DNA from: an uncultured Syntrophomonadaceae bacterium
GTDB taxonomy: Bacteria > Bacillota > Dethiobacteria > DTU022
Length of the DNA stretch: 64,000 nucleotides
Assembly: GCA_964441025.1 (NCBI GenBank)
Contig: CAYTXG010000010.1
Span: 3,301-67,300, forward strand
Reading direction: 5' to 3'
Positions 1,439-50,936 of the stretch are shown piece after piece; positions within the stretch are counted from its first letter, which is position 1, and each line of letters opens with the position of its first letter. Under the pieces are notes generated by a model that did no database searches, was not told the DNA's origin, and was given only the letters and a program-made list of their open reading frames with translations. Both the position numbers and the translations under genes were made by a program.

Positions 1439-2735
1439 CAGGAATAAAAGAGTGCGTGAATTTGCCGAGCTGCAGGAAACACTTGTTTGCTACACAATTT
1501 ACCCGGGGATGCCCCTGTACATCCTTCCCAAGCCCGGCTACCAGAAAAAATATGCCGCCTTTGCCGCCCACTTCGGCTCCATCGACAACCGCTTCCAGGT
1601 GGAAGGCGCCGCCGAACCGGTCACAATTCCGGAAGGGGTGGCTCATTTTCTGGAGCACAAGCTTTTTGAGGATGAGCGGGGGAATGTGTTCGACCGTTTT
1701 GCCGCCCACGGCGCCTCATCCAATGCCTATACCACCTTTACGCATACCAGCTACCTTTTCTCGACAACGGATCACTTTTCAGAATGCCTGGAGCTGCTTC
1801 TTGACTTTGTGCAGGAGCCCTATTTTACCGGGGAATCGGTGAGCAAGGAGCAGGGGATCATCGGGCAGGAGATCGGCATGTACCAGGACAGCCCCCAATG
1901 GCGGGTTTTCTTTGATCTTTTGCAGTCGCTTTACGAGCGCCACCCTGTGCGCGAGGATATCGTCGGCACGGTGGAGAGCATTGCCCGGATCACGCCCGAG
2001 CTGCTCTATCAATGCTACCGGCGTTTTTACCATCCGGGCAACATGGCCATGTTTGTTGTCGGCGATCTCGAGCCCGACGAGATCTGGAAGCAGGTCAGCG
2101 AGAATATCGAGCGTCACAATTACAGGGAACTTGCCCCCATCGCCAGGCTCTACCCCGAGGAGCCGGCAACGGTGCTGCGCCGGCGCACCAGCCGGGAGAT
2201 GGTTGTCTCCGAGCCGCTTTTTCACCTGGGCTTCAAGGATCCGGCGGCGGTGCGGCTTGAGGGGGAGGCGCTGCTGCGCCGCGAGAGCGCCATGGAGATC
2301 ATGCTCGATATTATCTTCGGCTCCAGCGAGGCGCTTTTCAACGAGCTATATGAAAATATGCTGATAGACGATCGCTTTGAAGCGGGCTACACCGCGGAGG
2401 CCGGCTATGCTTATATCCTCATCGGAGGGGAGACAAGGGACCCCGACCGGCTCTATGAGAGGATCATGGGCGCCATTGAAGAGGCGAAAAAAGCGGGATT
2501 CAGCGCCGGCCAGTTTGAGCGCCACCGGCGGGACCGCCTGGGCAGCTTCATGCGCCGCTTCAATTCCCTGGAATACATCGCCAACAATTACCTGGCCTAC
2601 CGCTTCCGCGGCAGCGACCTTTTCAACTATCCGGCTGTGTTGCAGCAGATTACCCTGGACGAGGTTTACTCCCTTGTTGAAGAGACGCTCATCCCCGAGA
2701 GGCACGCCGTCTCCATCATCACCCCCAAAAAATGA
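1428..2735 (+). CDS. M16 family zinc peptidase (inverzincin HxxEH motif HFLEH)
   Basis: The HFLEHKLFEDERG motif is near the N-terminus. ATG at 1428 is preceded by GAGGAAGGGG. The long ORF start at 1383 sits inside the upstream gene and is unlikely. The stop TGA at 2733-2735 is the first triplet of a REP element. Confidence 0.8.
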   Translation: MVNDRNKRVREFAELQETLVCYTIYPGMPLYILPKPGYQKKYAAFAAHFGSIDNRFQVEGAAEPVTIPEGVAHFLEHKLFEDERGNVFDRFAAHGASSNAYTTFTHTSYLFSTTDHFSECLELLLDFVQEPYFTGESVSKEQGIIGQEIGMYQDSPQWRVFFDLLQSLYERHPVREDIVGTVESIARITPELLYQCYRRFYHPGNMAMFVVGDLEPDEIWKQVSENIERHNYRELAPIARLYPEEPATVLRRRTSREMVVSEPLFHLGFKDPAAVRLEGEALLRRESAMEIMLDIIFGSSEALFNELYENMLIDDRFEAGYTAEAGYAYILIGGETRDPDRLYERIMGAIEEAKKAGFSAGQFERHRRDRLGSFMRRFNSLEYIANNYLAYRFRGSDLFNYPAVLQQITLDEVYSLVEETLIPERHAVSIITPKK

Positions 2736-2761
2736 GTCAAGGGGACGGAGGATTTGACTCA
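2733..2761. repeat. REP-like 29-bp palindromic element (variant TGAGTCAAGGGGACGGAGGATTTGACTCA)
   Basis: Direct reading; the outer arms TGAGTCAA/TTGACTCA are reverse complements. It supplies the stop codon of the upstream CDS. Confidence 0.9.
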
Positions 2762-3188
2762 CTCTGCCATGGGCTGCCGACCAGGGTCAAGGTGCGTTCC
2801 TCCGGGGAGTTAGGTTTATCTTACGGGACCAGTTTTACACCGGCTGCACAAATTCGGGCGACCTGTAGGTCGCCCCTTGTACACCGGCCAGACATGGGTC
2901 ACCCGGCACCGCCTGATCCATCCTGTTGCCGTATTCCCCGCAGAACCGGGTTCCAACGGGGCTTTTCGCCCTGCAGCATTCACATTTCAGCCCTTTTCCC
3001 TCCTATGCAGATCTTCTCCCGCTGCGCCAAGTATATCCTGCGATTAGAAAAGGTTGGCGAGCTATTCCCTTCGCTCCGGTTCACCACAGGCGAGGGTTTA
3101 ATAATTGCTTGCTCTTCAGAGGGAAAGCCGTTACAATAGTCAAAGAGCGTGTACACAAAATTGTGCACAAACAGCGGGGAGGAAAAAC

Positions 3189-5930
3189 ATGCATCCATTT
3201 ACTGAATATCTCAATCCTTACTTAGGCGATCTCCTGCAAAACATGGCCATGGATAAGAGCTTTGTGCGGGGGGATGGTTGCCATCTTTACGATGAATCCG
3301 GCAACCGCTATCTCGACTGCATAGCCGCTTACGGTGCGCTGCCCTTCGGGCATAACCCCCCGGAGATCTGGGAGGCGGTGACCGGTTTCCGCATCTCCGG
3401 GGAGCCCAATTTTGTGCAGCCCTCTTATCTCGACGCAGCGGGTTTGCTGGCGAAAGGGCTGGTGGAGACGGCTCCGCCTGGCCTGCGCTACGTCACCTTT
3501 ACCAACAGCGGCGCCGAAGCGGTGGAAGCTGCGCTGAAGCTCTGCCGCGCCGCCACCGGGCGTAAAGGGATCCTGGCAGCAGATAACAGCTTCCACGGCA
3601 AGACCCTGGGCGCGCTTTCCGCAACGGGGAACAGCGCCTACCAGGCGCCTTTTGGGACCCCGGTGGAGGGATTCGATTTTGTTAAATACGGGGATCCCGA
3701 TGCTTTGGAAGCCAAATTCGCGGCGGCGCCGCGGTTCTATGCCGCCTTTATCGCCGAGCCTATCCAGGGCGAGGGGGGGATTGTTGTGCCGCCGACGGAC
3801 TACCTTTCCCGGGTTAAAGAGATCTGCGCCCGCTACGGGGTTCTCCTGGTGGTGGATGAGATTCAGACCGGGCTGGGGAGAACTGGCCGTTTATTTGCCT
3901 GTGAAGAGGAAGGAGTTACACCGGACCTGCTGCTCCTGGCCAAAGCCCTGGGCGGCGGCCTTGTGCCCATAGGCGCCTGCCTAAGCACTGCAGAGGCATA
4001 CAGCGATCTCTTTGCGCTGAAGCATTCCTCGACCTTTGCGGGAAATTCACTGGCCTGCCGGGTGGGGCTCCGGGTGCTGGAGCAGCTTACTGCGGATAAC
4101 GGCGCACTGCTGCACCAGGTCCAAAAGCGGGGGCTGCTGTTGAAGGAGGGTCTTTACGCCCTGCAAGAAAAGTACCCGCACCTGATCAGTGCTGTGCGGG
4201 GGAGAGGTTTGATGCTCGGCCTGGAGCTGTCCATGGAGCGGCGCTCATATCCGGGCAGCCTTCTCGGATTTGCCGCCGAACAGGAGCTTCTGGCACCGGC
4301 TCTCTCCGCCTACCTGCTGAACCGGGAGCGGATTCGCGTGGCCCCCACGCTGAACGGCGGCGCCGTTATCCGTATTGAACCGCCGCTCATTATCACTGAC
4401 GCACAGTGCCGCCGAGCTTTGGAAGGCATTTCCGCCGCAATGGCGGTGCTGAACGAAGCAAATACGGCAAGATTCTTCTCATTTTTGGTTACAGATAAGT
4501 CGGAGCTGCGCGGACTCAAAGAACAGTTTTCTCCGGGCCCACCGGCGCCTGGCGGAGCGAAAACAGCAGCCGGCGGGCCTGTTCCGGCAGGTCAGCCGGA
4601 ACAAGCGGCAGCTGCCCCAACTGCCGGCGCCGCCGCCGCTTTCCCCGGTGCGGGTCGCTTTGCCTTCCTGCTTCATCCTCTTGACCTGCAGAGCTATTCG
4701 CAATTTGATAAAAGCCTGCTCCTTTTTAACGAGGATGAACTTGCCCGCCTGGCGAAAAGGTGGAGCAGCCTGATGGAGCCCTATGTGATCTCCCGGGTGG
4801 ATCTGGTATCAAAAGAGGGCGGCTGCGCCCGGGGTGAATTTATCGTTATACCGCGCACAGCCGTAGAGCTGTCCCGGATGCCCCGCGAAAAAGCACTGCA
4901 GGAGCTGCGGAAGGCGATGAATCTGGCCCGGGCGGGCGGCGCTGGTATTGTCGGTCTGGGCGCCTATACCGCCGTTGTCTCCATGGGCGGGCTCTACCTG
5001 AAAGACGAGAAAATCCCGCTGACCACCGGGAACAGCTACACCGTTGTCTCGGCGGCTGAAGCGGTTGGCGCCGCCTGCGGGAAGCTGGGGATACTGCCGC
5101 AGGGCAGCACCGTAGCGGTTATCGGGGGCGCCGGCTCCATCGGCAAGGGGGTGGCCCTGCTGCTTTCCGAAAGCGCGGGCGGGCTTATCCTGGTAGGGAA
5201 TCCTCACAGCAAAAAGAAGGCCTGCGGCGCTCAGCGGATGTGGGGGGTTGCTGCAGAGATCTACCGCTACCTGGCCCGGCTGCTGCAGGGGGGACGCCTT
5301 TTTCCCTGCGGCAGCATGGGTGATCGCCTGTCCCGCTGCGCAGCGCTGCCTTCGCCCGAAGCATCTCTGCAAGATTTCGTTGACTTTGCCCGCAGCGCTG
5401 CGCAACGGGGCGGGCCTATCCGGGTCGCTCTTTCCGCCAAAGAGGGGCTCGGCCGGGCAGGAATCGTGATCAGCGCCACCAGCAGCCGGGAAAAACTGAT
5501 CGGACCGGGCGATCTGCAGCCGGGAGCAGTTGTCTGTGATATCTCAAGGCCGCCCAATGTGAGCGAAGCGGTGGAGAACGAGCGCCCCGATGTCCTGGTT
5601 ATTGACGGCGGCGTTGTCGAGCTGCCCGGGCGCCCCGACCTGGGCTGGGATTTCGGATTCCCGCCGGGTCTGGCCTACGCCTGTATGGCCGAAACAATGA
5701 TGCTGGCCCTGGAGCGCCGCTACGAGCACTTCAGCCTGGGCTCCTCCGGGGTGAACCTGGATTCCATATTGCAGACCCGCCGGTGGGCCGGCCGTCACGG
5801 TTTCAAGCTGGCCGATCTGCGCAGCTTTGATCGCCCCTTGAGCAAAGGGCGCTGGGAGCAGCTGCTTGCCGCCCGCCGCGAACAAAAAACCGCCGTGAGC
5901 CACGGTGACAGTGAGTCAAGGGGACGGTGA
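3189..5930 (+). CDS. Fusion protein: class-III PLP aminotransferase (N-terminal ~440 aa) plus acyl-ACP reductase (AAR)-like NAD(P)-binding domain (C-terminal ~430 aa)
   Basis: ATG 3189 follows GGGGAGG with a 6-nt spacer. The N-terminal part has class-III aminotransferase motifs (NSGAEAVEAALKL, VVDEIQTGLGRTG). A Pro/Ala-rich linker follows. The C-terminal part resembles cyanobacterial aldehyde-forming acyl-ACP reductase (FAFLLHPLDL, GAGIVGLGAYTAVV, VAVIGGAGSIGKGVA, VIDGGVVE). The last codons (ESRGR-stop) are encoded by a REP element. Confidence 0.75.
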   Translation: MHPFTEYLNPYLGDLLQNMAMDKSFVRGDGCHLYDESGNRYLDCIAAYGALPFGHNPPEIWEAVTGFRISGEPNFVQPSYLDAAGLLAKGLVETAPPGLRYVTFTNSGAEAVEAALKLCRAATGRKGILAADNSFHGKTLGALSATGNSAYQAPFGTPVEGFDFVKYGDPDALEAKFAAAPRFYAAFIAEPIQGEGGIVVPPTDYLSRVKEICARYGVLLVVDEIQTGLGRTGRLFACEEEGVTPDLLLLAKALGGGLVPIGACLSTAEAYSDLFALKHSSTFAGNSLACRVGLRVLEQLTADNGALLHQVQKRGLLLKEGLYALQEKYPHLISAVRGRGLMLGLELSMERRSYPGSLLGFAAEQELLAPALSAYLLNRERIRVAPTLNGGAVIRIEPPLIITDAQCRRALEGISAAMAVLNEANTARFFSFLVTDKSELRGLKEQFSPGPPAPGGAKTAAGGPVPAGQPEQAAAAPTAGAAAAFPGAGRFAFLLHPLDLQSYSQFDKSLLLFNEDELARLAKRWSSLMEPYVISRVDLVSKEGGCARGEFIVIPRTAVELSRMPREKALQELRKAMNLARAGGAGIVGLGAYTAVVSMGGLYLKDEKIPLTTGNSYTVVSAAEAVGAACGKLGILPQGSTVAVIGGAGSIGKGVALLLSESAGGLILVGNPHSKKKACGAQRMWGVAAEIYRYLARLLQGGRLFPCGSMGDRLSRCAALPSPEASLQDFVDFARSAAQRGGPIRVALSAKEGLGRAGIVISATSSREKLIGPGDLQPGAVVCDISRPPNVSEAVENERPDVLVIDGGVVELPGRPDLGWDFGFPPGLAYACMAETMMLALERRYEHFSLGSSGVNLDSILQTRRWAGRHGFKLADLRSFDRPLSKGRWEQLLAARREQKTAVSHGDSESRGR

Positions 5931-5940
5931 CTTTGACTCA
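5912..5940. repeat. REP-like element, consensus TGAGTCAAGGGGACGGTGACTTTGACTCA
   Basis: Direct reading; contains the stop codon (5928-5930) of the fusion gene. Confidence 0.9.
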
Positions 5941-5958
5941 CATCTTATGCAATTAAAT

Positions 5959-5987
5959 AGAGTCGGAGGGACGTTTACCTTGACTCA
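5959..5987. repeat. Degenerate second REP copy (AGAGTCGGAGGGACGTTTACCTTGACTCA)
   Basis: It sits 19 bp after the first copy in the same orientation, with about 8 mismatches. Confidence 0.6.
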
Positions 5988-5995
5988 CCGGTCGC

Positions 5996-6766
5996 TCAAG
6001 CCCTTTGAATCATGTTTCTGTTTATCCCGGCGACGCGTTCTATTTGCCGGTGACTGACCCCCGGCAGGGCTTTTAACTTCCGCAGGAGCATGTTTCTTCT
6101 GTTAGCGGGCATTTTAAGAAGCTCCGCCGTTGATTTGCCGGCTAAAACCAGCTGGATCAACTGCTCTGCATGCCCATCTGTAGCCCTGGTAATATCGTTG
6201 ATATCCAGCAGATCCTCGTCGCCGCAAATTTTCAAGTGGAATTCGGCAAACTCCTGTTGCCCGCCGATGATCTCCAAAGCCAGAGCTGTATCTGTCAGGC
6301 TGGTGTCCACGCTTTCCGGTTTCATATAATCACGATAGCTGCTCCAGGGATAGCTTGCGCAATATTGCGTTATTCCAGCCTTCACAGGATTCTGATGGAT
6401 GTAGCGTAACGCCGTCAGCAGATATTCGTCCACATGAACAGGTTCACTGTGGAAGCGCCCCTGGAACAAATGTCCCACCCGATCGTGCTTCCGGTTATAC
6501 CAGTACACATAAGCGCTTCCCAGCCGTTTCATGATCTGGCTGACCGTTTCGATGATCTCGGCGATGAGCAAATGCACATGATTGCCCATCAGGCAATATC
6601 CATAAATCATGCATCTGCTGCGTTTTTTAACAGAATCGAGTATCTCCAAGAATCTGGTTCTATCTTCTTTATCTTGAAAGATGTTACGGCGGTTAATCCC
6701 TCTTAGTATTACATGATAGACACCGGTTTCGCTCCTTTTACGAGCTGTTCTGGGCATGCCAATCAT
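5996..6766 (-). CDS. IS200/IS605-like Y1 (HuH) transposase of the REP-associated type (RAYT), with a C-terminal HTH-like extension
   Basis: The HuH motif (GNHVHLLI) is followed by the tyrosine region (YVYWYNRKHDRVGHLFQGRF). REPs in opposite orientation flank the gene at 5912-5987 and 6889-6917. Confidence 0.8.
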   Translation of the reverse strand: MIGMPRTARKRSETGVYHVILRGINRRNIFQDKEDRTRFLEILDSVKKRSRCMIYGYCLMGNHVHLLIAEIIETVSQIMKRLGSAYVYWYNRKHDRVGHLFQGRFHSEPVHVDEYLLTALRYIHQNPVKAGITQYCASYPWSSYRDYMKPESVDTSLTDTALALEIIGGQQEFAEFHLKICGDEDLLDINDITRATDGHAEQLIQLVLAGKSTAELLKMPANRRNMLLRKLKALPGVSHRQIERVAGINRNMIQRA

Positions 6767-6888
6767 TCCTTTTCAGAAGATATTTGCATGGATTATTATA
6801 CCATAGCGGTAAGATTCTGAAAACAAGGTCTCAACAAGCAGCACTCCTGCTGCAGCGGTTGCCGGAGAATCCAGGGAGACGCTTCTGG

Positions 6889-6917
6889 TGAGTCAAAGTC
6901 ACCGTCCCCTTGACTCA
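6889..6917. repeat. REP-like element, inverted orientation (TGAGTCAAAGTCACCGTCCCCTTGACTCA)
   Basis: Exact reverse complement of the 5912 copy. Confidence 0.9.
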
Positions 6918-7654: not shown

Positions 7655-8676
7655 TGAGGCGCCAATACTGCCGGGCACATTCTCGCAAATACCGGCCGGC
7701 GGGGCCGGCCGCCGCTCTCCTCCTGGCTGTTTTTGCGCTGCTGACCCTCTCTTCCCTCTCTTGCGGCGTTCGGGAGCGGGCCGCCGTTGATGAGGAAAGC
7801 GGCGGTGCGATTGAAGAAGAGAAGAGCCTCCGGGAAGAGAATATTTCCTTCACGTTTTATCCCCCCTCGCCCGGACCCGGGGATTTTTCCATGCTTGCAG
7901 CAGGACCCTGTCCGGCAGACAGCAGCGTCAAGCTGGATACAGAGCCCGGACTGGCTCTCTCACCGCCTTATCGTCACGGAGATTATATTTACTTTATAGT
8001 TGGGATTGGCTTTCAAGTTGCTCCCGGGCCGCAGAGCCTGCTCCTCACCCTGGAGGGGCCGGGCGCCTATCGAGAAGAGGTTGCCGGAGAGCTGGAAATT
8101 GTCCACCTTGCCTTTGACACCTCGTACTTCAGCGTGCCGGTGAAGTGGAGCGGGGAGGAGGCCGACCGGAGAATCCCCGCAGAGCGGGAGATGGTCCGCC
8201 GGGCCCTCCAGACCACCGAACCGGCTCCCCTGTGGTGCCAGCCTTTCATCGTTCCCCTTGAATCCCGCATCAGCTCCCAGTACGGGGCTGTGCGGATCAT
8301 CAACGAAGCCCCGCCGCGGCGGCATACGGGGCTTGACATCGCCGCCGACAGGGGAGAGCCGGTGAAGGCGGCCAACGACGGGATCGTCAGGCTGGCTGCG
8401 TCGCTGCTGGCTCAGGGTAATATGGTGATCATTGATCACGGGATGAACCTGTCCAGCTCCTATCTGCATCTGGACAGCATCGAGGTTGACGAAGGCACCC
8501 ATGTCAAAAGAGGCGAGATTATCGGCCGCGTCGGGGAGACCGGCTTTGCCAACGGCCCTCACCTGCACTGGGAGGTGAACCTGGGCCAGACGCCGTTGAA
8601 CCCGCTGCAGCTGGTCCGGGGCGATCTTTTCTATCTGCCCACCCCCGCCCTTGAGTCGGAGGGACGGAGGATTTGA
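7654..8676 (+). CDS. M23/LytM family metallopeptidase with N-terminal signal peptide or anchor
   Basis: The C-terminal region has HTGLDIAADRGEPV...NGPHLHWEV. The stop and last 8 codons (LESEGRRI) lie inside a REP element. Confidence 0.8.
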   Translation: MRRQYCRAHSRKYRPAGPAAALLLAVFALLTLSSLSCGVRERAAVDEESGGAIEEEKSLREENISFTFYPPSPGPGDFSMLAAGPCPADSSVKLDTEPGLALSPPYRHGDYIYFIVGIGFQVAPGPQSLLLTLEGPGAYREEVAGELEIVHLAFDTSYFSVPVKWSGEEADRRIPAEREMVRRALQTTEPAPLWCQPFIVPLESRISSQYGAVRIINEAPPRRHTGLDIAADRGEPVKAANDGIVRLAASLLAQGNMVIIDHGMNLSSSYLHLDSIEVDEGTHVKRGEIIGRVGETGFANGPHLHWEVNLGQTPLNPLQLVRGDLFYLPTPALESEGRRI

Positions 8677-8680
8677 CTCA
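8652..8680. repeat. REP-like element (variant TGAGTCGGAGGGACGGAGGATTTGACTCA)
   Basis: Direct reading. Confidence 0.85.
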
Positions 8681-8828: not shown

Positions 8829-8857
8829 TGAGTCAAATCCTCCGTCCCCTTGACTCA
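8829..8857. repeat. REP-like element, inverted orientation (TGAGTCAAATCCTCCGTCCCCTTGACTCA)
   Basis: It forms an inverted pair with 8652-8680, separated by ~148 bp. The spacer carries a third partial copy (GGGACGGAGG at ~8753). Confidence 0.85.
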
Positions 8858-16167: not shown

Positions 16168-16564
16168 CCAGGGCGCAGACAAGGGCGATGATAGTGAGCA
16201 GCCCCGGCAGCCAGGCCAGGTATGTCTCCATGCTGATCACACTCTCCACATAACAGCTGTCCCGGAAAAGAATAAAGGGCAGCGACAGGATGAACAAGGC
16301 AATATTGATCATGAAAACAGCGAAGGCATAGCGGTTGATCGGTGAAAAGAATAACCCATCCGGCCAGGGCCGGCGCCGCAATGAAACCGCCCATTGTCTT
16401 CTTCTCCATGCAACCTACGATCCGGCGATTACCTCTACGAATTGTAGAAAACGTGATAAGGTGACAGGAGAACCGTCCCCGTGTCACCTTAAAAAATGTT
16501 TTCAACAAGGAAACTGCTGTCCATTGTTGAAAGAGGGGATGTAATGTAAAAGTGAGGTGGTCCC

Positions 16565-19827: not shown

Positions 19828-22800
19828 ATGAGGGCACGGGTAGTGAAAAAAAAGAATAGACGATTGCTCTTGAATCTGGCGATGGTGTTGATGATGTTGG
19901 TAAATCTCTTTCCCTTAGGACTGGTCCATGCCGGTGGAACAGGGACTGACAAAACCTCTGTGCTCACCGACATTGTGACAGCTGTCAGCCAGGGGGGAGC
20001 GGCCATTGCCCCGGGCGGCACATTGACAAGCACAGAGCCGATCACAGTAGAGATTTCGTTTGGGGTGCCTGTTGAAGGCGACGAGCCTACCCCCGCAAAT
20101 CCCGTCCGAAAAGGAGATACTGCAACTTTTCAGCTAAGCAACGCCTTCAGCCTGGCTTCGGGTTATGTGATAGATTTGAAAGCGAGTGACGGCACCCCTG
20201 TCGGGCATGTTGCCATAGAAAAAGATCCCGCAACGGAAATGGTCTATGCTCACGTAACTTTTGACGGTGCAGATGAGGTCTTTGATGGAACATTCAATAC
20301 TGTGAGTTGCGGGTTTATGGCTGAATTTGAATATGACGGCAGCGGCGAAGCGGGCCATCCCGGTGATCACGAGGTGATCATCCTCGAAAAAACATATATC
20401 GTGAATGTGCCCCCCGCTGAGATCATGTACGAGGTAACCAAATCAGGGGTAGCCAACGTGGCGGAGAAATACATCGAGTGGACTGTGAGGATTATTGCTA
20501 CCCAGGATGATGAGCCGGTAGATCTGGCCGGCTACATATTCTCCGACGATCTGTCAGCTGTTGGGTCTTATGTGGACGGCTCCTTTACAGTCGGTGGGAC
20601 AGCCGATACCCCGACTAAGGATGACAGCAAGATCAGTTATGTTTTTCCTGACAACTCCACCAGTCCCCAGACAATTACCTTTAAAACTGAGATATCAGAC
20701 GATGCTTACTATGCTGCTTCGCAGCAAAACGTGACCAATACAGCGCAGCTTCTGGACAGCGAAGAAGAACTAATTGAAGAGGGCGGAATCACGGTAAGAT
20801 TCACGCCCCAATGGATCGAGAAAACCGGCGAACTCATTGGAGAGTACATCAACGGAGTTTATAATTCGACTGACCGAACCATCACCTGGACCGTTATCGC
20901 CAACCAGATGGAGGCGGCTCTGCAAAATGTGGTGATCACCGATGTTATGCCCGTGGGGCTGGAGTTCGGTTCGGCCTACTGGGAAAAGTGGGACAGTAAC
21001 GAGGAAAAATGGATCGAAAAAAAAGAGTTCACCGAATATCCCACGGGGGGAAAATATGAGCTCGGCGATATTGATACCCGGGTCCGGCTGACCATTGTGA
21101 CAGGTGTGCCCGATGAGGATTACACTGCAGGCATCACAACGTACAGCAATTCGGCAAGCATCAGCTGGGACGGGCTGCCGGGAACGGCGCCGGGGGACAG
21201 CGAAGGTATCGGGGTGGGTTATGTTCCCATTACGAAGTCGGGCAAAGTGGAGGATACCGCCAAAGGGATCATCACCTGGACAGTGACTGTTAAGCCCAGG
21301 GGGCAGATCATCCCTGACCTGAAGGTCTATGATCTTCTTGTTTACGGCAGCAGCACAAGCGGGTTCAGTCTTTCAGGCTCCACGGGATTCCCTGGGGGCC
21401 TTGATCCACAGATGTTAACCCCCCGCTATGACCAAAAATATATCGACGAAACGTTTATCGGTACAGATCTCACCCTGAAGATTCACCCGATTACCCAGGG
21501 CGGGGAGCGGGTGGCCGATCTGCTGGAGATCACCGGGTTTGGCAATAATGAGGCATCTTTTACCTTCCAGAGCCGGATCACCAACCCCGGTATCTTTGCC
21601 GGAAACAAGAGCTCCACCCTGAGAAATACTGCTGTGCTCTTCAGCGGCAGCACCAGGCTGAACACGGCTTCAGGGTCGGTTACTTTTACCAGCAATACTT
21701 TGGCCAAAGAGATGCTGAAGCGCGGTCATCTGGATGATCCCTCATCGGGAGTAAATGATTACACCACCAGCGCCGGGGAGGGCTTCGATTATAAGGATAA
21801 ATCGGTGATCTTCCGTCTGAGCATCAACGCCGACGGCATCGACTTTACCGGGATGGAAGATGCTGCAGGAAATATACTGGGCAAAGCTACAGTAACTGAC
21901 ACCCTGCCCGCGGATTGGGAATTCGTAAATATTGCTGACGGGTCAAAGTACCTCATCTTTGCAGGTGAAAAATCGGGCAGTACGGTTAAAGCAACAGGTG
22001 CTCCCCTGGTTCCTGATAGTTCCGTAGGATTTAATGCAATATTCGGGGAAAGCGTATCCGGGCAGGCTACCGCCACCTTTACTTTTGAAAAGCTGGATCA
22101 GCCCTATGTGATCCTGGTCAAGGCAAAACCCAGCGACACCATCCTGGCCGAATATTTCAGCAAAAATGCAACGTGGAACGGGAGGAATACCCTCTCTTTG
22201 AAAGCAGAAAACTGGACGCCCGGGGTCTCCGTTTACCGCGATGTGACCATTGTCAGCAAATACCTGGATAAAACCCTGGCTTTTCCCGAGGCTGGTGTGC
22301 TCAAGTGGATCCTGGAATATCATCCCTATGATCTGCCCGGGGGAGGGACAAAGCTTTTCGATGAGCTTCCCGAAGGGGTGGAGCTGCGCACCGATTCCGG
22401 CGGAACATTGCTGCTCGATGGGAATATCACCGCCCATGAGCTGATCCTGCAGAGTGACGGCAGCTATAGCGAAGGGGATGAAGTCACCCTGATCATAGGT
22501 GAAAATATAACTTACGACAACGCCAAAAGAGAGCTCACCTTTTATATCCCTGATCAGAGCAAAGCTTATCGCTTTACCTATCTCACCGATATTACGGGAG
22601 AACCGGGAGAAATCACCAACAAAGTAGTGCTATGGGGCGAAACGGACGAACAGGGGAATACGGATAAAAACTACACGATCACGCAAAATGACGGCTGGGC
22701 CGCCATGGAGCGGAACGGCTGGATCGAGATCAAGAAAGTGGATGGAAGCACCGGTGAGTTTCTCGAGAAAGCAGAATTTACACTTTATACTTCCGACGGC

Positions 22801-24171
22801 GAGACCGTCCTTCGCAAGGGCTTTACCGGCGCCGACGGCACCCTCAAGTTCAAGGTTATACCCGACGGCGAATATATTTTGCGTGAAACGTCGCCTCCCG
22901 ATGGCTACACTGCCGAAGATCGGGAGCACAGGCTCTCCGTTAAAACGTCGGAAGGGGTTGTTTTTGCTTCCATTGACGGCAGGGGCGGAGCAGATGCCAA
23001 CAAGATCACCATAAAGAATTACCGGGAGGGTACTGCCGGAAACCTGACCATAACCAAAGTGACAGCCGGCAACGGCGCAGATATGACCGGGGGATTCGAC
23101 TTTACGGTGACTTTTAAAGGCACAATGGATAGCTACGACTATTTTGGCTCCGGTGGTGTCCCCGATGGTACCATTTCGAGCGGGGGTACCGTCACCCTGG
23201 CCCACGGCCAGAGCATCACCATCACCGGCCTGCCGAAAGGGACGGAGTACACCGTAAGTGAAGGGGATTACCGGTGGGAGGGCTATGTCACGGCAACAGA
23301 TGGCGGTGAAACCGGGGCCATCATTGCTGATGAAACAGCGGAAGTCACCTTTACCAACACCCGCAATGTGGGCAGTCTGACCATCAGCAAGGCCGTGGCC
23401 GGCAACGGCGCCGATAAAATGAAGGGGTTTGAATTCACAGTAACTTTTGATCCCCCTGAAGAAATGCCTGATAGCTATCCCTGCAGTGGAGCAGGTATTC
23501 CCGCAGGGGCTGTTATTACCAGCGGCGACATCATTACCCTGGCTCACGGTCAGAGCATCACCATCACGGAGATTCCCGAGGGGACAAAGTACCGCGTAAC
23601 AGAGGTGGATTACTCTGATGAAGGCTATATTACCGCCGTTGCGGGCGCAAGCGGGGTGATCACTGTTGGCGATGATGATGAACCTCCTGAATACTTTGCT
23701 GAATTTACCAATACAAGAAATGTGGGGCCCCTGGTTATCAGAAAAACAGTGGCCGGAGCCCTGGGAGATAAAGAGCGGCCCTTTACCTTTATTGTTTATT
23801 TCGAGGCAAGCGGCGGGTACCGCTACTGGGGCAGCAAGACCGGGACTATCGAAAGCGGCCAGGCCGTCACCCTGAAACACGGTGAATATATCGTTATTGA
23901 AGGACTTCTCGCCGGCACCTCCTACCGGGTTACCGAGGTGGAGGCCAATCGTGAGGGCTACTGCACGACCTGTTCCGGAATAGTGGGCGAGATCACCACC
24001 TCCGGCAGGACGGCGGATTTTGTTAATACCAAAGTAGATCTCCCCCGCACCGGGGCGAATGGCCTGAACACCACCTGGGGGATGCTGCTGCTGGGCGCAC
24101 TCCTCGTGCTCTTTACCGCAGGCGGGCCATATTTGCTTTTCCGCTACAGGAGAGGCCTGCGCAGTAACTGA
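19828..24171 (+). CDS. Sortase-anchored cell-wall surface protein with tandem Cna-B/SpaA-like (prealbumin-fold) repeats
   Basis: Signal peptide present. The C-terminus has LPRTG, a hydrophobic helix and an RYRRGLRSN tail. It has four Cna-B/SpaA-like ~100-aa repeats, including three tandem GNGAD-type copies (GNLTITKVTAGNGAD...YRVTEVD) and one SdrD-B-like copy (GWIEIKKVDGSTGEFL). Confidence 0.8.
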   Translation: MRARVVKKKNRRLLLNLAMVLMMLVNLFPLGLVHAGGTGTDKTSVLTDIVTAVSQGGAAIAPGGTLTSTEPITVEISFGVPVEGDEPTPANPVRKGDTATFQLSNAFSLASGYVIDLKASDGTPVGHVAIEKDPATEMVYAHVTFDGADEVFDGTFNTVSCGFMAEFEYDGSGEAGHPGDHEVIILEKTYIVNVPPAEIMYEVTKSGVANVAEKYIEWTVRIIATQDDEPVDLAGYIFSDDLSAVGSYVDGSFTVGGTADTPTKDDSKISYVFPDNSTSPQTITFKTEISDDAYYAASQQNVTNTAQLLDSEEELIEEGGITVRFTPQWIEKTGELIGEYINGVYNSTDRTITWTVIANQMEAALQNVVITDVMPVGLEFGSAYWEKWDSNEEKWIEKKEFTEYPTGGKYELGDIDTRVRLTIVTGVPDEDYTAGITTYSNSASISWDGLPGTAPGDSEGIGVGYVPITKSGKVEDTAKGIITWTVTVKPRGQIIPDLKVYDLLVYGSSTSGFSLSGSTGFPGGLDPQMLTPRYDQKYIDETFIGTDLTLKIHPITQGGERVADLLEITGFGNNEASFTFQSRITNPGIFAGNKSSTLRNTAVLFSGSTRLNTASGSVTFTSNTLAKEMLKRGHLDDPSSGVNDYTTSAGEGFDYKDKSVIFRLSINADGIDFTGMEDAAGNILGKATVTDTLPADWEFVNIADGSKYLIFAGEKSGSTVKATGAPLVPDSSVGFNAIFGESVSGQATATFTFEKLDQPYVILVKAKPSDTILAEYFSKNATWNGRNTLSLKAENWTPGVSVYRDVTIVSKYLDKTLAFPEAGVLKWILEYHPYDLPGGGTKLFDELPEGVELRTDSGGTLLLDGNITAHELILQSDGSYSEGDEVTLIIGENITYDNAKRELTFYIPDQSKAYRFTYLTDITGEPGEITNKVVLWGETDEQGNTDKNYTITQNDGWAAMERNGWIEIKKVDGSTGEFLEKAEFTLYTSDGETVLRKGFTGADGTLKFKVIPDGEYILRETSPPDGYTAEDREHRLSVKTSEGVVFASIDGRGGADANKITIKNYREGTAGNLTITKVTAGNGADMTGGFDFTVTFKGTMDSYDYFGSGGVPDGTISSGGTVTLAHGQSITITGLPKGTEYTVSEGDYRWEGYVTATDGGETGAIIADETAEVTFTNTRNVGSLTISKAVAGNGADKMKGFEFTVTFDPPEEMPDSYPCSGAGIPAGAVITSGDIITLAHGQSITITEIPEGTKYRVTEVDYSDEGYITAVAGASGVITVGDDDEPPEYFAEFTNTRNVGPLVIRKTVAGALGDKERPFTFIVYFEASGGYRYWGSKTGTIESGQAVTLKHGEYIVIEGLLAGTSYRVTEVEANREGYCTTCSGIVGEITTSGRTADFVNTKVDLPRTGANGLNTTWGMLLLGALLVLFTAGGPYLLFRYRRGLRSN

Positions 24172-24257: not shown

Positions 24258-24286
24258 TGAGTCAAAGTCACCGTCCCCTTGACTCA
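24258..24286. repeat. REP-like element, inverted orientation
   Basis: Exact consensus, reverse-complement form. Confidence 0.9.
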
Positions 24287-29408: not shown

Positions 29409-30155
29409 CTATCCCAGCAGGTTTGTGATCGGAATGGAGAGGGCCATGGCGCCCAGCATGCTTATGGGCAGTGCATAATCCTCCATCCACTTGACTTTGA
29501 GAACCTTGACGAAAAAGCCGCAGATAAGCATGAGCAGGGCGGAGATAATCATCACAAAAACGGGGATCCAGCCCTTGATGCCCGCGGTGATGTCGGCGAA
29601 GATCATCCCCAGGAAGGCCGAGATCATCCCCAGGAAAAGGGCATCTATGAAAATCTGCCCCCACCGGGCATCCCTTTTTTTCAGGCTCTCGATGCCTCCC
29701 TGGATCTTCTTCAAGAAAATGGTGATCACTATGAGCCCCGACATGATCCCCAGGGTCATGACCCAGGCGATGGTTGAGTAGGCCCGGGGGTCGGCCACCC
29801 CTTCGGATATGGGCGTTCCCAGGACCCCGGCGGCGATGCTGGCCGCAGGCAGTTCATAGGTCACCGCGCCCAGGACGCTCAGCCTGAGCCAGGGCAGCGG
29901 CAGCCCCAGGAACTTGGAAAGGGCGAACACCCCCATGAGAATGGCTATGGCCGGCGCCACGGTGAAGACGGCGCTGGCCCCGACCACCCTTTTCAACACT
30001 GCCGGGGCAAAACCCAGCGCCCTGGCCTGGCGCCAGGCCTTGTACAGAAAGAAAACTGATTGGGCCATGACAAAAAGAACGATAACTCCGGCGACAATAA
30101 ATAGAAACATGCTGTTAAGATCGAAGCCTTTCAAAGAAAACACCACCTTTCCCAT
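29409..30155 (-). CDS. Polytopic membrane protein, partner of the previous one
   Basis: The ORF-track start at 30206 lies inside a REP element (MSQSHRPP is REP-encoded). The likely start is the Met at 30155. Confidence 0.55.
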   Translation of the reverse strand: MGKVVFSLKGFDLNSMFLFIVAGVIVLFVMAQSVFFLYKAWRQARALGFAPAVLKRVVGASAVFTVAPAIAILMGVFALSKFLGLPLPWLRLSVLGAVTYELPAASIAAGVLGTPISEGVADPRAYSTIAWVMTLGIMSGLIVITIFLKKIQGGIESLKKRDARWGQIFIDALFLGMISAFLGMIFADITAGIKGWIPVFVMIISALLMLICGFFVKVLKVKWMEDYALPISMLGAMALSIPITNLLG

Positions 30156-30176
30156 ATTTGTTTTATTTCCAAACCA

Positions 30177-30205
30177 TGAGTCAGGGGGACGGTGACTTTG
30201 ACTCA
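30177..30205. repeat. REP-like element (TGAGTCAGGGGGACGGTGACTTTGACTCA) plus an extra TTGACTCAC half-site
   Basis: Direct reading. Confidence 0.85.
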
Positions 30206-30210
30206 TTGAC

Positions 30211-31674
30211 TCACGGGGTGAGGGGCCGGCTTTTCAACAGCTCCACGTAAAAGCGCACGCCCCGTTCAACATTCTCCAGCGAGAGCCGCTCATTGGTGCC
30301 GTGCATCCGCTCCAGGTCATCCTGGGAGATGAGCATGGGGGTAAACCTGTAAATCTGATCGCAGAGCGGTTCGTAGCGGATCGCGTCAGTTCCGCCCATT
30401 ACAATGTAGGGAACCGTTACCGCCTCGGGGAAGATGGCATAGACAGCCCGTTCGATAGTCTTGAACCCGCTGCCGTCAACGGGCGAAATTTTCGAAGGCT
30501 CCGTGGTGACCATGGGCTCTATCTTGATCTTTTCGCCCACCGCTTTCCGGACATGATCCAGCAGCTCCGGCACGCTTTCACCCGGCGCGATGCGGTAGTT
30601 GATCACTGCGCTTGCTTTGCGCGGCAGCACATTGGGCTCGCTGCCTCCTTCCAGGATTGTTACCGCTGCGGTGGTGCGCAGCAGCGCGTTGCCCGCCCGT
30701 GAGGATTTGAAAATCAGCTTGAATATGGGCCCGAAGAGCCACAGATTGGCCAGTATGATCCGCAGTCCGAATGTCATTTCCGGGCCGATATAGGCCAACA
30801 TCTCTTTCAAGTAGGGGCTGATCCTTGTTGGGCGCTGCCGTTTCTCCAGCGCAACCACGGCCTGCCCGATCATCCCCGCCGCTGTATGCATGGGCGGCAT
30901 GGAGGAGTGGCCCGCCTCGCCGTCAGCGGTGATCTTGATGTCGGCATAGCCCTTCTCGGCAATGCCCACCAGGGCAATGGGGCGCTCCACGCCGGGCATG
31001 GCCCCCACGGTGACGGCGCCGCCTTCATCGAGCACATACTCAAGGGTGATGCCGCGGGACTGCAGCAGCTCCGAAATCCTGAGTGCTCCGTCCTCGCCGC
31101 GCACCTCTTCGTCGTGGCCGAAAGCCAGAAAGAAATCGCGGGCCGGGGTGAATCCTTTCTCCAGAAGATGCTCCACCGCCTCCAGGATCAGGATGACCTG
31201 GTTTTTGATATCCATCGTCCCCCGGCCCCAGACAAAGCCTTCGGCGACAGCGCCGCTGAAGGGCGGGTGGCTCCAGTCCTGCTCCGTGCCCTTTTCCACG
31301 GGGACCACATCAATATGGGCCATGAGAAGCACAGGTTTCAGCCCTTCCTCGCTTCCTTTCCAGCGGTAGAGCAGGCTGTACTCATTGACGATTTCCCGCT
31401 CCAGGGCGGCATGGGCGGCGGGAAAGGCCTGCTCCAGGTATTTGATGAACTGCTCAAAAGGCGCCCGCTCCGCTTTTTTCGGGTCGGAAGCGGTAATGGT
31501 TGGGATCCGGACCGCCCCGGAGAGGCGCTCCGCAGCGCGGTCCACATCGATCTCGATGCCCTTTTCCCGCTCCGCCGCATAACGCCGGGAACGGAAAGCA
31601 ACAGCTCGCGTCAGGATCACGGCAGCCAGGATCAGGACCGCTGCCGGCAGCGCATAGTAAAGAAAATCAGGCAT
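30211..31674 (-). CDS. M20 family metallopeptidase with N-terminal membrane anchor
   Basis: M20 metal-binding regions (MAHIDVVP, GHDEE, HSSMP). The start is moved to ATG 31674, preceded by GGAGGTG. Confidence 0.8.
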   Translation of the reverse strand: MPDFLYYALPAAVLILAAVILTRAVAFRSRRYAAEREKGIEIDVDRAAERLSGAVRIPTITASDPKKAERAPFEQFIKYLEQAFPAAHAALEREIVNEYSLLYRWKGSEEGLKPVLLMAHIDVVPVEKGTEQDWSHPPFSGAVAEGFVWGRGTMDIKNQVILILEAVEHLLEKGFTPARDFFLAFGHDEEVRGEDGALRISELLQSRGITLEYVLDEGGAVTVGAMPGVERPIALVGIAEKGYADIKITADGEAGHSSMPPMHTAAGMIGQAVVALEKRQRPTRISPYLKEMLAYIGPEMTFGLRIILANLWLFGPIFKLIFKSSRAGNALLRTTAAVTILEGGSEPNVLPRKASAVINYRIAPGESVPELLDHVRKAVGEKIKIEPMVTTEPSKISPVDGSGFKTIERAVYAIFPEAVTVPYIVMGGTDAIRYEPLCDQIYRFTPMLISQDDLERMHGTNERLSLENVERGVRFYVELLKSRPLTP

Positions 31675-33862: not shown

Positions 33863-33916
33863 CCAAACCAGCCACAGGGACGGGGGCTTTGGCTGGTCAA
33901 AGGAGTTTCCATAACC

Positions 33917-36246: not shown

Positions 36247-37324
36247 GTTTGGAAATCTTCTGCGGATATCGCTTTTCGGTGAGTCCCACGGCCGGGCTGT
36301 GGGGGTGCTTGTCGACGGCTTCCCCGCCGGAGAGGAGATCGACATGGAGGAGCTGCAGTGCTTCATGGAGCGGCGCCGGCCCGGCAGGGACAGCCTTTCC
36401 ACCGCTCGCAGGGAGGCGGACAAACCGGTTTTCCTCTCGGGAATAACGGGCGGCAGGACCAACGGCAGCCCCCTTTGCGCCGTCATCGAGAACAGCGATG
36501 CAAAGTCCTCCGACTACACGGAACTGGCCGATAAACCCCGGCCCGGGCATGCCGATTACACCGCCCATGTAAAATGGAAAGGCGCCGCCGATCTGCGCGG
36601 CGGCGGCCATCTCTCGGGGCGGCTGACGGCGCCCCTCTGCACAGCGGGGGGGATTGCGAGGCAGATCCTGGCCCGGCGGGGGATCTACACCGGAGCCCAC
36701 CTCGCCGCTGTCGCCGGCATCAGCGACGAGTCGCTCCCCCTGGTCCCGGGGAAGGAGCTTTTCGCAGAGCTCGCCGCAAAGCCCTTTCCCGTCATCGACG
36801 AAGGCAAGGGGCTGGAGATGCAGGCGCTCATCAAGGCGGCGGCGGCCGCGGGAGATTCTGTGGGAGGCGTTGTGGAATGCGCCGCTGCCGGCCTTCCCGC
36901 CGGCCTGGGCTCGCCGCACTTCGGCGGTGTGGAGAACCGCCTGGCTGCGGCTCTCTTCGGCATACCGGGGGTGAAGGGGATTGAATTCGGCGCCGGATTT
37001 GCAAGCGCCGCCCTGAGCGGCTCGCAGAACAATGACCTTTTCTATATTGATGAAGAGGGCGCCGTCAGGACAAGGAGCAACAACTGCGGCGGTATCCTGG
37101 GCGGGATCACCAACGGGATGCCCCTTCTCTTCCGGGCGGCCTTCAAGCCCACTCCTTCCATCGCTCTACCCCAGCAGACGGTGAGCCTGTCCCGGCGCGA
37201 GCCGGCGGTGATCACCGTAACGGGACGCCACGATCCCTGCATTGCGCACCGGGCGGTGCCGGTGGTGGAGGCCGTTGCCGCGGCGGTCCTCCTGGACATG
37301 CTCCTTGAGTCACGGGGACGGTGA
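36236..37324 (+). CDS. aroC: Chorismate synthase
   Basis: N-terminus LRISLFGESHG. The C-terminal LESRGR-stop is encoded by a REP. Confidence 0.9.
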   Translation: MSSEFGNLLRISLFGESHGRAVGVLVDGFPAGEEIDMEELQCFMERRRPGRDSLSTARREADKPVFLSGITGGRTNGSPLCAVIENSDAKSSDYTELADKPRPGHADYTAHVKWKGAADLRGGGHLSGRLTAPLCTAGGIARQILARRGIYTGAHLAAVAGISDESLPLVPGKELFAELAAKPFPVIDEGKGLEMQALIKAAAAAGDSVGGVVECAAAGLPAGLGSPHFGGVENRLAAALFGIPGVKGIEFGAGFASAALSGSQNNDLFYIDEEGAVRTRSNNCGGILGGITNGMPLLFRAAFKPTPSIALPQQTVSLSRREPAVITVTGRHDPCIAHRAVPVVEAVAAAVLLDMLLESRGR

Positions 37325-37334
37325 CTTTGACTCA
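37306..37334. repeat. REP-like element (TGAGTCACGGGGACGGTGACTTTGACTCA)
   Basis: Direct reading; provides the aroC stop codon. Confidence 0.9.
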
Positions 37335-39821: not shown

Positions 39822-40233
39822 CGGGCCCAACCTGAACCTGCTCGGCATCCGCGAGCGGGAGCTGTACGGGCGGACCACTTATGCCGACCTTGTGGCCCTG
39901 ATCAAAGCGGAGGCCAAGAAACTGGGCCTGAAGACAGAGTTTATCCAATCCAACCATGAAGGCGAACTGGTGGAGGCTGTCCAGGGCGCCTACAGAAAAT
40001 TTGACGGCATCATCATCAACCCCGGCGCCTACACGCACACCAGTATCGCCCTTCTCGACGCCCTTAAGGCCGTGGGAGTGCCTGCAGTGGAGGTTCATAT
40101 CACTGACCCCGACAGCCGCGAAGAGTTCCGCCGCATCTCCTACATCCGCGCCGCCTGCATCGGCACCATCAAGGGCCGCGGCCTGCAGGGCTACCTCGAT
40201 GCCCTCCACCTCCTTGAGTCAAGGGGACGGTGA
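39802..40233 (+). CDS. aroQ: 3-dehydroquinate dehydratase, type II
   Basis: N-terminus MHILVINGPNLNLLGIRE. The C-terminal LESRGR-stop comes from a REP. Confidence 0.9.
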   Translation: MHILVINGPNLNLLGIRERELYGRTTYADLVALIKAEAKKLGLKTEFIQSNHEGELVEAVQGAYRKFDGIIINPGAYTHTSIALLDALKAVGVPAVEVHITDPDSREEFRRISYIRAACIGTIKGRGLQGYLDALHLLESRGR

Positions 40234-40243
40234 CTTTGACTCA
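40215..40243. repeat. REP-like element (consensus)
   Basis: Direct reading; provides the aroQ stop and a likely operon-end hairpin. Confidence 0.9.
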
Positions 40244-45980: not shown

Positions 45981-46009
45981 TGAGTCAAAGTCACCGTCCC
46001 CTTGACTCA
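45981..46009. repeat. REP-like element, inverted orientation
   Basis: Exact consensus reverse complement. It overlaps the yhaN stop region. Confidence 0.9.
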
Positions 46010-50907: not shown

Positions 50908-50936
50908 TGAGTCAAGGGGACGTTGACTTTGACTCA
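50908..50936. repeat. REP-like element (variant with GTTGAC)
   Basis: Direct reading; in the divergent intergenic region. Confidence 0.85.

Follow-up and report, generated by a model that had tools for sequence, protein, structure and literature searches.

What holds a nuclease gene and the repeats around it together is the question raised by positions 5912-6917 of the DNA analyzed here, a 64-kb stretch from an uncultured Syntrophomonadaceae bacterium (contig CAYTXG010000010.1; hereafter the window, to which coordinates as well as gene and repeat copy counts refer unless another locus is named). At this locus, a gene for a HuH/Y1-type protein is enclosed by inverted copies of a hairpin repeat that is dispersed over the window. 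The original prediction, made from the sequence alone, had read the arrangement as a module composed of repetitive extragenic palindromic (REP) sequences and their REP-associated tyrosine transposase (RAYT). The analysis presented in the following leads us to regard the locus, with good confidence, as a REP/RAYT-type module belonging to the TIRYT/TnpA-REP subclass 2.1 branch and residing in a Bacillota chromosome. As part of this reading and with the same confidence, the hairpin of ~29 nucleotides (nt), of which one sense copy lies upstream and one or two antisense copies lie downstream of the gene, is taken to be the cognate DNA of the nuclease.

The nuclease and the hairpins at its flanks

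The RAYT-like gene, of the TIRYT/TnpA-REP subclass 2.1 type, occupies positions 5996-6766 on the minus strand and corresponds to an open reading frame (ORF) of 256 amino acids (aa). Because homologs begin with MPR and AAGGA is found 10 nt ahead of the second ATG, the true start is probably M4 (ATG at 6757), which would result in a protein of 253 aa. That inverted repeat copies bracket this gene had been predicted correctly: the outer flanks at 5912-5941 (plus strand) and 6888-6917 (minus strand) form an inverted pair of 30 nt with 100% complementarity, to which a degenerate tandem copy is added on the downstream side. The upstream hairpin repeat (6889-6917, minus strand; covariance model 31.3 bits, E 1.7e-7) is located 122 nt ahead of the ORF start, and its G-rich loop strand is the sense strand of the gene. 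On the downstream side, the outer repeat (5912-5941, plus strand) is a perfect copy antisense to the nuclease gene, and the degenerate inner repeat AGAGTCGGAGGGACGTTTACCTTGACTCA (5959-5987, plus strand; 24.4 bits, E 3.6e-5), arranged in tandem to the outer copy with 66% identity, starts 9 nt past the stop codon of the gene. The repeat is built as TGAGTCAA-GGGGACGGTGACT-TTGACTCA with a length of ~29 nt. When folded as single-stranded DNA (ssDNA) it adopts the hairpin structure that had been anticipated, with a stem of 8-11 bp (TGAGTCAA/TTGACTCA) and a loop of 9-13 nt (GGGGACGGTGACT) composed of the purine-rich GGGGACGG and five variable nucleotides.

Between the upstream repeat and the gene lies a promoter-like site (6795-6823, minus strand) consisting of TTTTCA, a 17-nt spacer, and TATAAT with a TG extended -10, which agrees with the consensus at 10 of 12 positions, is promoter-like by this agreement only, and lies 65 nt from the repeat. 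The TATGGTATAAT of this site is also found upstream of a 73%-identical homolog from Syntrophaceticus. Just past the outer downstream repeat, a terminator-like hairpin followed by a T-run is present on the strand of the gene (5889-5906, minus strand), again as a match to the consensus only.

The N-terminal part of the protein (aa 1-145; nt 6332-6766, minus strand) forms the HuH/Y1 catalytic domain containing the HuH motif H63-V64-H65 (nt 6572-6580) and Y122 (nt 6401-6403). The ORF is matched by the Pfam family Y1_Tnp at 7e-17, and among the NCBIfam models NF047646 (REP_Tyr_transpos) ranks first with 73.8 bits, below the curated cut-off of 80, in an alignment that extends over aa 7-142 and covers the entire 146-position profile. 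The model NF033573 (transpos_IS200) reaches 22.5 bits, which is well under its cut-off of 55. An AlphaFold2 model built on 39 homologs, with a predicted local distance difference test (pLDDT) score of 90, finds its best match in the PDB in 4er8_A, the E. coli TnpA-REP/REP complex (E 4.6e-7, template modeling score 0.71 (target-normalised), 159 columns); the next structural matches, the IS608, ISDra2, and IS200 transposases, extend over ~100 columns only. Identity to E. coli TnpA-REP is low, amounting to 18% in the structural alignment with a profile E of 1e-4, and phmmer, run on the PDB with the single sequence of the N-terminal domain as query, returned nothing; 4ER8 was reached only by profile and fold search.

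In the 39 homologs, which share 45-87% identity, H63 and H65 (in NHVHLL) as well as R121, Y122, H124, N126, and P127 (in RYIHQNP) are invariant. The active site of E. coli TnpA-REP is composed of H59-M60-H61, Y115, and N119 (PMC3479197), and the tyrosine signature of class 2 reads Y---NP (PMC6006769). In position, H63/H65, Y122, and N126 match H59/H61, Y115, and N119 of the E. coli protein. The class-2 signature is present as Y122-I-H-Q-N126-P127, and its Y, N, and P do not vary among the 39 homologs. Because of the invariance of RYIHQNP, the correspondence to Y115/N119, and the Y---NP signature, Y122 is the candidate for the catalytic tyrosine. Of the features first assigned to the protein, the HuH/Y1 identity with its HVH motif is borne out by the Y1_Tnp match and the invariant H63/H65; the tyrosine region has to be moved from YVYWYNRKH to RYIHQNP. 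Judged by sequence and model, the protein is an HuH/Y1 enzyme of the TnpA-REP (RAYT) type with predicted activity.

The RAYT profile ends at aa 142, and beyond the core follows a domain of ~110 aa that is helical and ends in a helix-turn-helix (HTH) motif. This C-terminal domain comprises aa 146-256 (nt 5999-6331, minus strand), with the HTH at aa ~221-256 (nt 5999-6106). In the AlphaFold2 model residues ~146-256 are all-helical, the last 60 aa have a pLDDT >90, and the terminal HTH reads ...GVSHRQIERVAGINRNMIQRA. Weak family matches were obtained to HTH_23 (14 of 39 members) and to HTH_29, HTH_28, HTH_7, and Sigma70_r4_2 (in at most 14 of 39). A Foldseek search of the isolated C-terminal domain against the PDB gave no significant fold match, and a profile comparison with DnaA domain IV showed no similarity. 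Profile matches to the B-domain of staphylococcal protein A were treated as spurious, since they are the sum of weak matches to a three-helix bundle present in repeated form.

Of the 8,000 candidates scored in a search of protein databases, 7,370 reached E<=1e-3. The top 120 homologs are, with few exceptions, 248-260 aa long and have PF01797 as their only Pfam family; they originate from Syntrophaceticus, Desulforamulus, Desulfotomaculum, Sporomusa, Thermoanaerobacterales, Acetivibrionales, and other Bacillota, the nearest relatives within this phylum being found in Syntrophaceticus, Syntrophomonadaceae, Desulfotomaculum, and Sporomusa. Some close homologs are already named "REP element-mobilizing transposase RayT" or "REP-associated tyrosine transposase" (NCBI, JGI). 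As nearly all top homologs are of this length, the two-domain form is the norm in Bacillota and no oddity. The HTH-like extension that had been proposed is therefore seen in the model, and its supposed unusualness does not hold, since the architecture is a common form in Bacillota with more than 7,000 homologs and belongs to a class described in the literature. The window itself has a G+C content of 56% and shares 76-81% nucleotide identity over kilobases with metagenome-assembled genomes (MAGs) of Syntrophomonadaceae and Bacillota. Given this similarity and a SpaA/collagen-binding surface protein of a type typical of Gram-positives, the guess of a Gram-positive host was a reasonable one.

Linkage of gene and hairpin across homologous loci

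If the hairpin is the partner of the nuclease, both should be found together elsewhere, and the family was sampled in 80 metagenomic loci coding for homologs of 39-60% identity. By visual and scripted inspection, most of these loci contain hairpins close upstream and close downstream of the gene. A family loop, GGGGAC(G/A)G followed by ~5 variable bases, is conserved across loci, and the stems match between both flanks of one locus and differ between loci. A covariance model termed R1, trained on hairpins from these same 80 loci, places its top 150 matches in a strongly oriented manner: within 200 nt upstream of the gene 57 lie on the sense strand versus one on the antisense strand, within 200 nt downstream 48 are antisense versus four sense, none falls inside the genes, and 40 are spread over the remaining 298 kb, which corresponds to a ~55-fold local enrichment. 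The median distance of the hairpin from the gene is 47 nt upstream and 11 nt downstream. The same arrangement of upstream-sense and downstream-antisense hairpins is present in six of six independent loci outside the training of R1, namely those from a Syntrophaceticus MAG, Sporomusa sphaeroides (CP146991), S. termitida (CP036259), Desulfotomaculum defluvii, Desulforamulus putei, and an Acetivibrionales MAG. Around these six loci, one to three further copies were found within +/-10 kb, i.e., ~1 per 9-10 kb.

The stems of the hairpins covary. Over 111 distinct R1 matches, in alignments that lean toward structure by construction, 90% of stem cells are paired, and stem cells changed on both sides number 207, compared with 59.5 +/- 9 in shuffles and at most 54 in slid-partner controls. 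All six stem pairs show several pair types, and a hand-picked set of hairpins agrees with this result. That the loop is invariant and the stems can be exchanged, all at a fixed position in the genome, is, as far as sequence comparison can tell, hard to explain unless the hairpin is the functional form.

In 19 of 47 of the homolog loci L110-L189, GACA continues the 3' foot of the upstream hairpin, and a TTGACA -35 box results; 14 of these 19 loci have a -10-like hexamer at 16-19 nt. The promoter of the gene is therefore often built into the repeat, and autoregulation by binding at the repeat is plausible as a consequence. This finding, which suggests repressor-like binding, and the conserved C-terminal HTH of the family are what could speak for a protein that has retired from catalysis and acts as a DNA-binding regulator, its HTH binding the duplex repeat and its HuH domain serving only as a scaffold. 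Both histidines, the tyrosine, and the asparagine, however, do not vary in any of the 39 homologs, the most distant of which share 45% identity; this is what an active enzyme would be expected to show, and autoregulation and catalysis can coexist in one protein. We regard a catalytically retired regulator as so improbable that hardly any weight is given to it.

Dispersal of the hairpin and residence of the gene in the chromosome

Within the window, a pattern search with the 29-mer allowing up to three mismatches identified nine copies, compared with 0.00 expected from 100 dinucleotide-preserving shuffles. R1, run over the window without filters, yields 14 matches at E<=5e-4, after which a clean gap extends to E 0.76. 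Twelve of these 14 matches carry the GAGTCA stem (E<=2e-4), which is the number of copies that had been counted before, and two carry the same loop on other stems. The GAGTCA-stem copies thus amount to approximately one per 5-6 kb, situated between or at the ends of housekeeping genes. A strict hairpin detector found 15 hairpins versus 0.6 expected in the window; a relaxed version of it, which allows G-T pairs and one mismatch, was dropped for its chance background of ~21 per 64 kb. As a scan of the whole window at the Rfam gathering thresholds found no family, the repeat is not a described RNA motif. Nine of the 12 copies lie outside the module, and in the window no other transposase is flanked by the repeat or found near one of its copies. 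Neither of the two observations named in advance as contradicting a REP-RAYT module was thus made.

These nine copies are distributed on both strands. A copy with the loop variant GGAGGAT (2733-2761, plus strand) contributes with its first TGA the stop codon of an M16 peptidase gene. The copy at 8652-8680 (plus strand) holds the stop of an M23 peptidase gene; together with the copy at 8829-8857 (minus strand), which lies 4 nt beyond the stop of a MatE gene, it makes up an inverted pair. With a spacer of ~148 nt this is the only inverted pair away from the nuclease gene, and most copies in the window are singletons or tandem pairs. The copies at 24258-24286 (minus strand, intergenic) and 50908-50936 (plus strand, in a divergent intergenic region) were found by both pattern search and R1. 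The copy at 30177-30205 (plus strand) is located between two minus-strand genes and is followed by an extra half-stem, TTGACTCAC. The copies at 37306-37334 and 40215-40243 (both plus strand) contribute the final codons together with the stop to chorismate synthase and to a type II dehydroquinase gene, respectively, and at 45981-46009 (minus strand) the first TGA of the repeat is the stop of an SbcC-like gene. Altogether, the genes around the copies in the window comprise M16 and M23 peptidases, the class-III aminotransferase fusion, MatE, an acyl-CoA ligase-like gene, an M20 peptidase, the chorismate/shikimate operon, and SbcCD-like genes.

Six host genes end at a stop codon that lies within a repeat copy, i.e., those for the M16 peptidase (2733-2735), the aminotransferase fusion (5928-5930), the M23 peptidase (8674-8676), chorismate synthase (37322-37324), the type II dehydroquinase (40231-40233), and the SbcC-like protein (46007-46009). 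The repeat contributes up to eight C-terminal codons, and in two cases the stop of the gene is exactly the first TGA of the repeat, which suggests that repeats were inserted at the 3' ends of genes or that insertion there is tolerated. At nine copies located at gene 3' ends, the G-rich loop strand is mRNA-sense in seven, a bias that is not significant at such numbers.

This positional preference raises the question whether the hairpins are primarily host regulatory elements, such as stabilizers of mRNA 3' ends, terminators, or sites for host proteins, between two of which the nuclease gene has landed by chance. Classical REPs stabilize mRNA. The location of most copies at gene 3' ends, the seven of nine 3'-end copies that put the same strand on the mRNA, and the stop codons placed inside the repeat in six ORFs would all fit such a role. 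An accidental landing fails, however, to explain the ~55-fold, orientation-specific flanking in more than 50 unrelated loci and the stems that match within a locus and differ between loci, which makes this explanation highly unlikely. A secondary host function of the hairpins is compatible with a REP/RAYT-type module. The hairpins are not intrinsic terminators, as they are not followed by a T-run, and a CRISPR array was ruled out by the irregular kb-scale spacing and the occurrence of copies on both strands.

The two R1 matches on other stems are a hairpin with the family loop GGGGACGGTTCTC and a different stem of 10 bp, TAAGGTGACA (16457-16491, minus strand; 31.1 bits, E 1.9e-7), and a hairpin in which the family loop AGGGACGGGGGCT sits on a third stem, ACCAGCCA (33867-33897, plus strand; 20.9 bits, E 5e-4), which is intergenic within an aromatic amino-acid operon. 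No cognate gene for the hairpin at 16457-16491 was found within the window. The two look like members of a second and a third repeat class, the cognate genes of which, if any, would appear to lie outside the window.

In one case the repeat could be compared at an orthologous intergenic site: at 30152-30235 of the window the copy is inverted relative to that in a related Syntrophomonadaceae MAG (L090, positions 95-252). As judged from the two sequences, this opposite orientation is evidence for turnover or inversion of the repeat at a fixed site.

Regarding the gene itself, tblastn detects a single copy of it in the 64 kb, compared with 12 hairpins. A related genome (MAG JAAZIG01; L066, positions 2537-3030) contains what is left of the nuclease gene, a frameshifted stretch that lacks the N-terminal part. 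It is syntenic with 5996-6766 of the window and adjoins the orthologous aminotransferase gene; copies of the repeat lie next to it and thus persist in that genome. Such a remnant would indicate long residence and decay at one chromosomal site. Moreover, the homolog P0032 has an identical neighborhood in three independent samples. Of 72,556 plasmid records, 30 contain a homolog, and these are mostly megaplasmids or chromids; of 50,697 phage records, one does. A search with the repeat pattern in 2.9 million viral contigs found none.

These observations bear on the alternative that the gene and its inverted flanks constitute an autonomous insertion sequence (IS) of IS200/IS605-like type or a "TIRtron" transposon, i.e., a selfish rather than a domesticated element, of which the solo hairpins would be miniature derivatives or abandoned ends. 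In a transposon-like manner, the inverted repeats bracket the gene tightly and at fixed distances. The same stem and loop, furthermore, reach beyond the host lineage: the matches listed for a degenerate repeat pattern come from many genomes, are mostly from Syntrophomonadaceae, Syntrophaceticus, Thermacetogenium, and Bacillota MAGs, and also include Mobiluncus porci, Eggerthellaceae, Lachnospiraceae, and one Caldisericia MAG. In addition, the distribution of subclass 2.1.2 is patchy and resembles that produced by horizontal transfer (Quentin 2018; PMC6006769), and among the RAYT groups only Group 6 is more IS-like than Group 1 (Bertels 2017; PMC5581495). Against an autonomous element stand the identical, inverted flanks, where the ends of IS200/IS605 elements differ from each other and run in direct orientation, the transpos_IS200 score of 22.5 bits versus a cut-off of 55, a fold nearer to TnpA-REP than to the IS608 and IS200 TnpA proteins, the ratio of one gene to 12 hairpins in 64 kb, the syntenic decayed copy in the related genome, the chromosomal context that is stable across samples, and the rarity of homologs on plasmids and phages. 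Taking both sides together, we consider an autonomous IS or TIRtron unlikely and prefer a resident REP/RAYT-type module.

In the stretches fetched from the distant genomes, the GAGTCA stem and the GGGGACG loop recur in seven from Mobiluncus porci, eight from Eggerthellaceae, and four from Caldisericia, and the distal loop bases of these copies are lineage-specific; among these stretches a nuclease homolog is present only in one from Eggerthellaceae (L054). From the sequences alone, the occurrence of the repeat in distant taxa hints at horizontal spread of the system.

Some features of the neighborhood were noted in addition. The repeat at 5912-5941 encodes the last five codons and the stop of the convergent gene at 3105-5930, the product of which is a protein of 941 aa with a class-III aminotransferase domain (aa 53-445) fused to a C-terminal region of ~450 aa; the latter has no Pfam match at 1e-5, and the fusion is kept in the genome that contains the decayed nuclease gene. 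The ORF at 19828-24171 encodes the 1,447-aa SpaA/DUF7601/collagen-binding surface protein and contains tandem repeats of ~340 nt with 70% identity at 23044-23636, which are repeated domains of a Gram-positive adhesin. A direct repeat of 196 nt (57696-57891 and 62098-62293; 89% identical, 4.4 kb apart) is unrelated to the hairpin family.

Relation to known systems and proposed mode of action

RAYT-like genes flanked by terminal inverted repeats (TIRs) instead of GTAG-tagged REPs were described by Di Nocera, De Gregorio & Rocco (2013) as TIRYTs and TIRtrons; many of these TIRs have the motif GGGGWSAS in common, located about equally far from the gene, and among them are self-complementary ones as well as members of moderately abundant repeat families (PMC3733652). 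In a later classification, 20 of 26 TIRYTs fall in TnpA-REP subclass 2.1, which contains the longest proteins, has C-termini similar to HTH_23, HTH_28, or Bac_DnaA_C, and equals RAYT Group 1; automatic and manual searches detected no REP-like sequences or structures near subclass 2.1 genes (Quentin 2018; PMC6006769). RAYT Group 1 was reported to be present in Clostridia, with flanking 16-mers occurring only ~12 times per replicon (Bertels 2017; PMC5581495). The long HTH-bearing class as such is thus already known under the names TIRYT/TIRtron, TnpA-REP subclass 2.1, and RAYT Group 1.

Common to this class and the module described here are an extended RAYT-like Y1 protein that carries an HTH of HTH_23/HTH_28 type at its C-terminus and inverted G-rich repeats at fixed short distances from the gene. 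Compared with GGGGWSAS, the GGGGACGG of the window agrees at seven of eight positions and the GGGGACAG of relatives at eight of eight (e.g., L121, L128, L139, L176, and L192). The module is placed in this branch (TIRYT/subclass 2.1/Group 1) on the basis of its loop, which agrees with the TIRYT motif, and of its domain structure, which agrees with subclass 2.1. It differs from previous descriptions in two respects: whereas no REP-like structure was reported for subclass 2.1, both flanks, in the window as well as in the majority of relatives, are formed by a hairpin with covarying stems, and in contrast to the ~12 16-mers per replicon of Group 1, 12 copies are present in 64 kb. A search of the literature, supplements included, found no paper naming these Bacillota taxa in the context of TIRYTs or RAYTs. 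What is new here is the family-wide hairpin partner for subclass 2.1 and a REP-like amplification in a Gram-positive lineage.

The comparison with E. coli TnpA-REP (RAYT Group 2/subclass 2.2; 4ER8) reveals similarities and differences. It is the best structural match and shares the HuH and Y---NP active site, and, as in the E. coli REP/BIME (bacterial interspersed mosaic element) system, a chromosomal gene, in the present case found once in 64 kb, lies between inverted copies of a dispersed extragenic hairpin. In the REPs of E. coli, the stem is imperfect and bulged, the loop is small, and GTAG serves as a 5' guide; the repeat described here has a perfect stem, a large conserved loop, and no GTAG. 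Moreover, the E. coli protein of 165 aa ends in an autoinhibitory tail of ~25 aa containing E161, whereas the core is followed here by an unrelated helical/HTH domain of ~110 aa. The REPIN-RAYT systems of Pseudomonas (Group 3/subclass 2.5) are similar in their dense dispersal, some inverted doublets, and more than one repeat class per genome; they differ from the present one in that its copies are mostly singletons or tandem pairs, the GTAG tag is absent, and the protein belongs to a different subclass. With the TnpA proteins of the IS200/IS605 family (IS608, ISDra2, and IS200), the nuclease shares the HuH/Y1 fold and, by analogy, probably the chemistry on subterminal ssDNA hairpin substrates. 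These class-1 proteins are dimers of ~130-150 aa without an HTH, encoded by multi-copy elements with distinct, directly oriented hairpins at their ends, whereas the present gene has identical inverted flanks and occurs once in 64 kb. In the flanks of the 12 copies no conserved tetranucleotide and no terminal GTAG or CGTC tag was found, CGTC being present only inside the loop on the complementary strand. The GTAG- and CGTC-tagged REP super-families of Di Nocera (2013) were accordingly ruled out, since a terminal tag is lacking and the loop comprises 9-13 nt versus 4-5 nt in the CGTC families. As there is no GTAG tag and the profile score lies just under the RAYT cut-off, TIRYT/subclass 2.1 fits better than a canonical proteobacterial RAYT. 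The REP-RAYT relation originally proposed is hence supported by fold, flanks, and dispersal, and its canonical form is not.

Several points weigh against the assignment to a REP/RAYT-type module. The protein stays under the curated RAYT cut-off of NCBI (73.8 vs. 80 bits), and the GTAG guide needed by E. coli TnpA-REP is absent, so that the recognition mode is not simply transferable and must differ from that in E. coli. In the literature searched, no biochemical evidence was found for any member of the TIRYT/subclass 2.1 branch. The detection of R1 matches in the 80 loci is partly circular, which does not apply to the statistics on orientation and position, and an R1 match on a given side is found in only ~60% of the metagenomic loci (44 of 73 upstream, 39 of 74 downstream). 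Finally, the GAGTCA stem is also present in genomes of Actinomycetota and Caldisericia, pointing to horizontal spread and hence to an IS-like trait.

By analogy to E. coli TnpA-REP and to the TnpA proteins of IS608 and ISDra2, the following mode of action may be envisaged. The repeat would fold when the DNA becomes single-stranded, for example on the lagging-strand template, and the enzyme would read the exposed conserved loop together with the helical stem. It would then cut at the foot of the hairpin by forming a 5'-phosphotyrosyl link to Y122 and subsequently rejoin the strands, by which hairpin copies could be copied, moved, or maintained. The stem would need only to pair and could be lineage-specific, and the loop would be the recognition element common to the family. 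The HTH would probably provide a second DNA contact, either to the stem or duplex form of the repeat or to the promoter of the gene itself, the latter resulting in autoregulation.

For the family as a whole, we tentatively propose, in the knowledge that it may well turn out otherwise, that subclass 2.1/TIRYT has a universal cognate hairpin in which the loop GGGGAC[G/A]G is combined with a stem that covaries freely. This would constitute a third, loop-directed REP super-family that extends across Bacillota into Actinomycetota and Caldisericia, is present in some Clostridia-like genomes at ~1 copy per 5 kb, and often supplies stop codons of the host.

The biology of REPs and RAYTs is known almost wholly from a few proteobacterial systems with GTAG-tagged repeats, and for Group 1/subclass 2.1, which is the largest RAYT group, reviews state that no accompanying REP-like structure exists. 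The hairpin now offers this group a concrete and testable candidate substrate, defined by 29 nt, a conserved loop, and natural compensatory variants of the stem, and Sporomusa and Desulfotomaculum are cultured carriers of such systems. For the bacteria concerned, the repeat accounts for several odd 3' ends of genes, where stop codons lie within it, and in Bacillota MAGs it gives rise to breaks in the assembly and to artefacts of annotation. Systems of this kind can attain REP-like densities in Gram-positive lineages.

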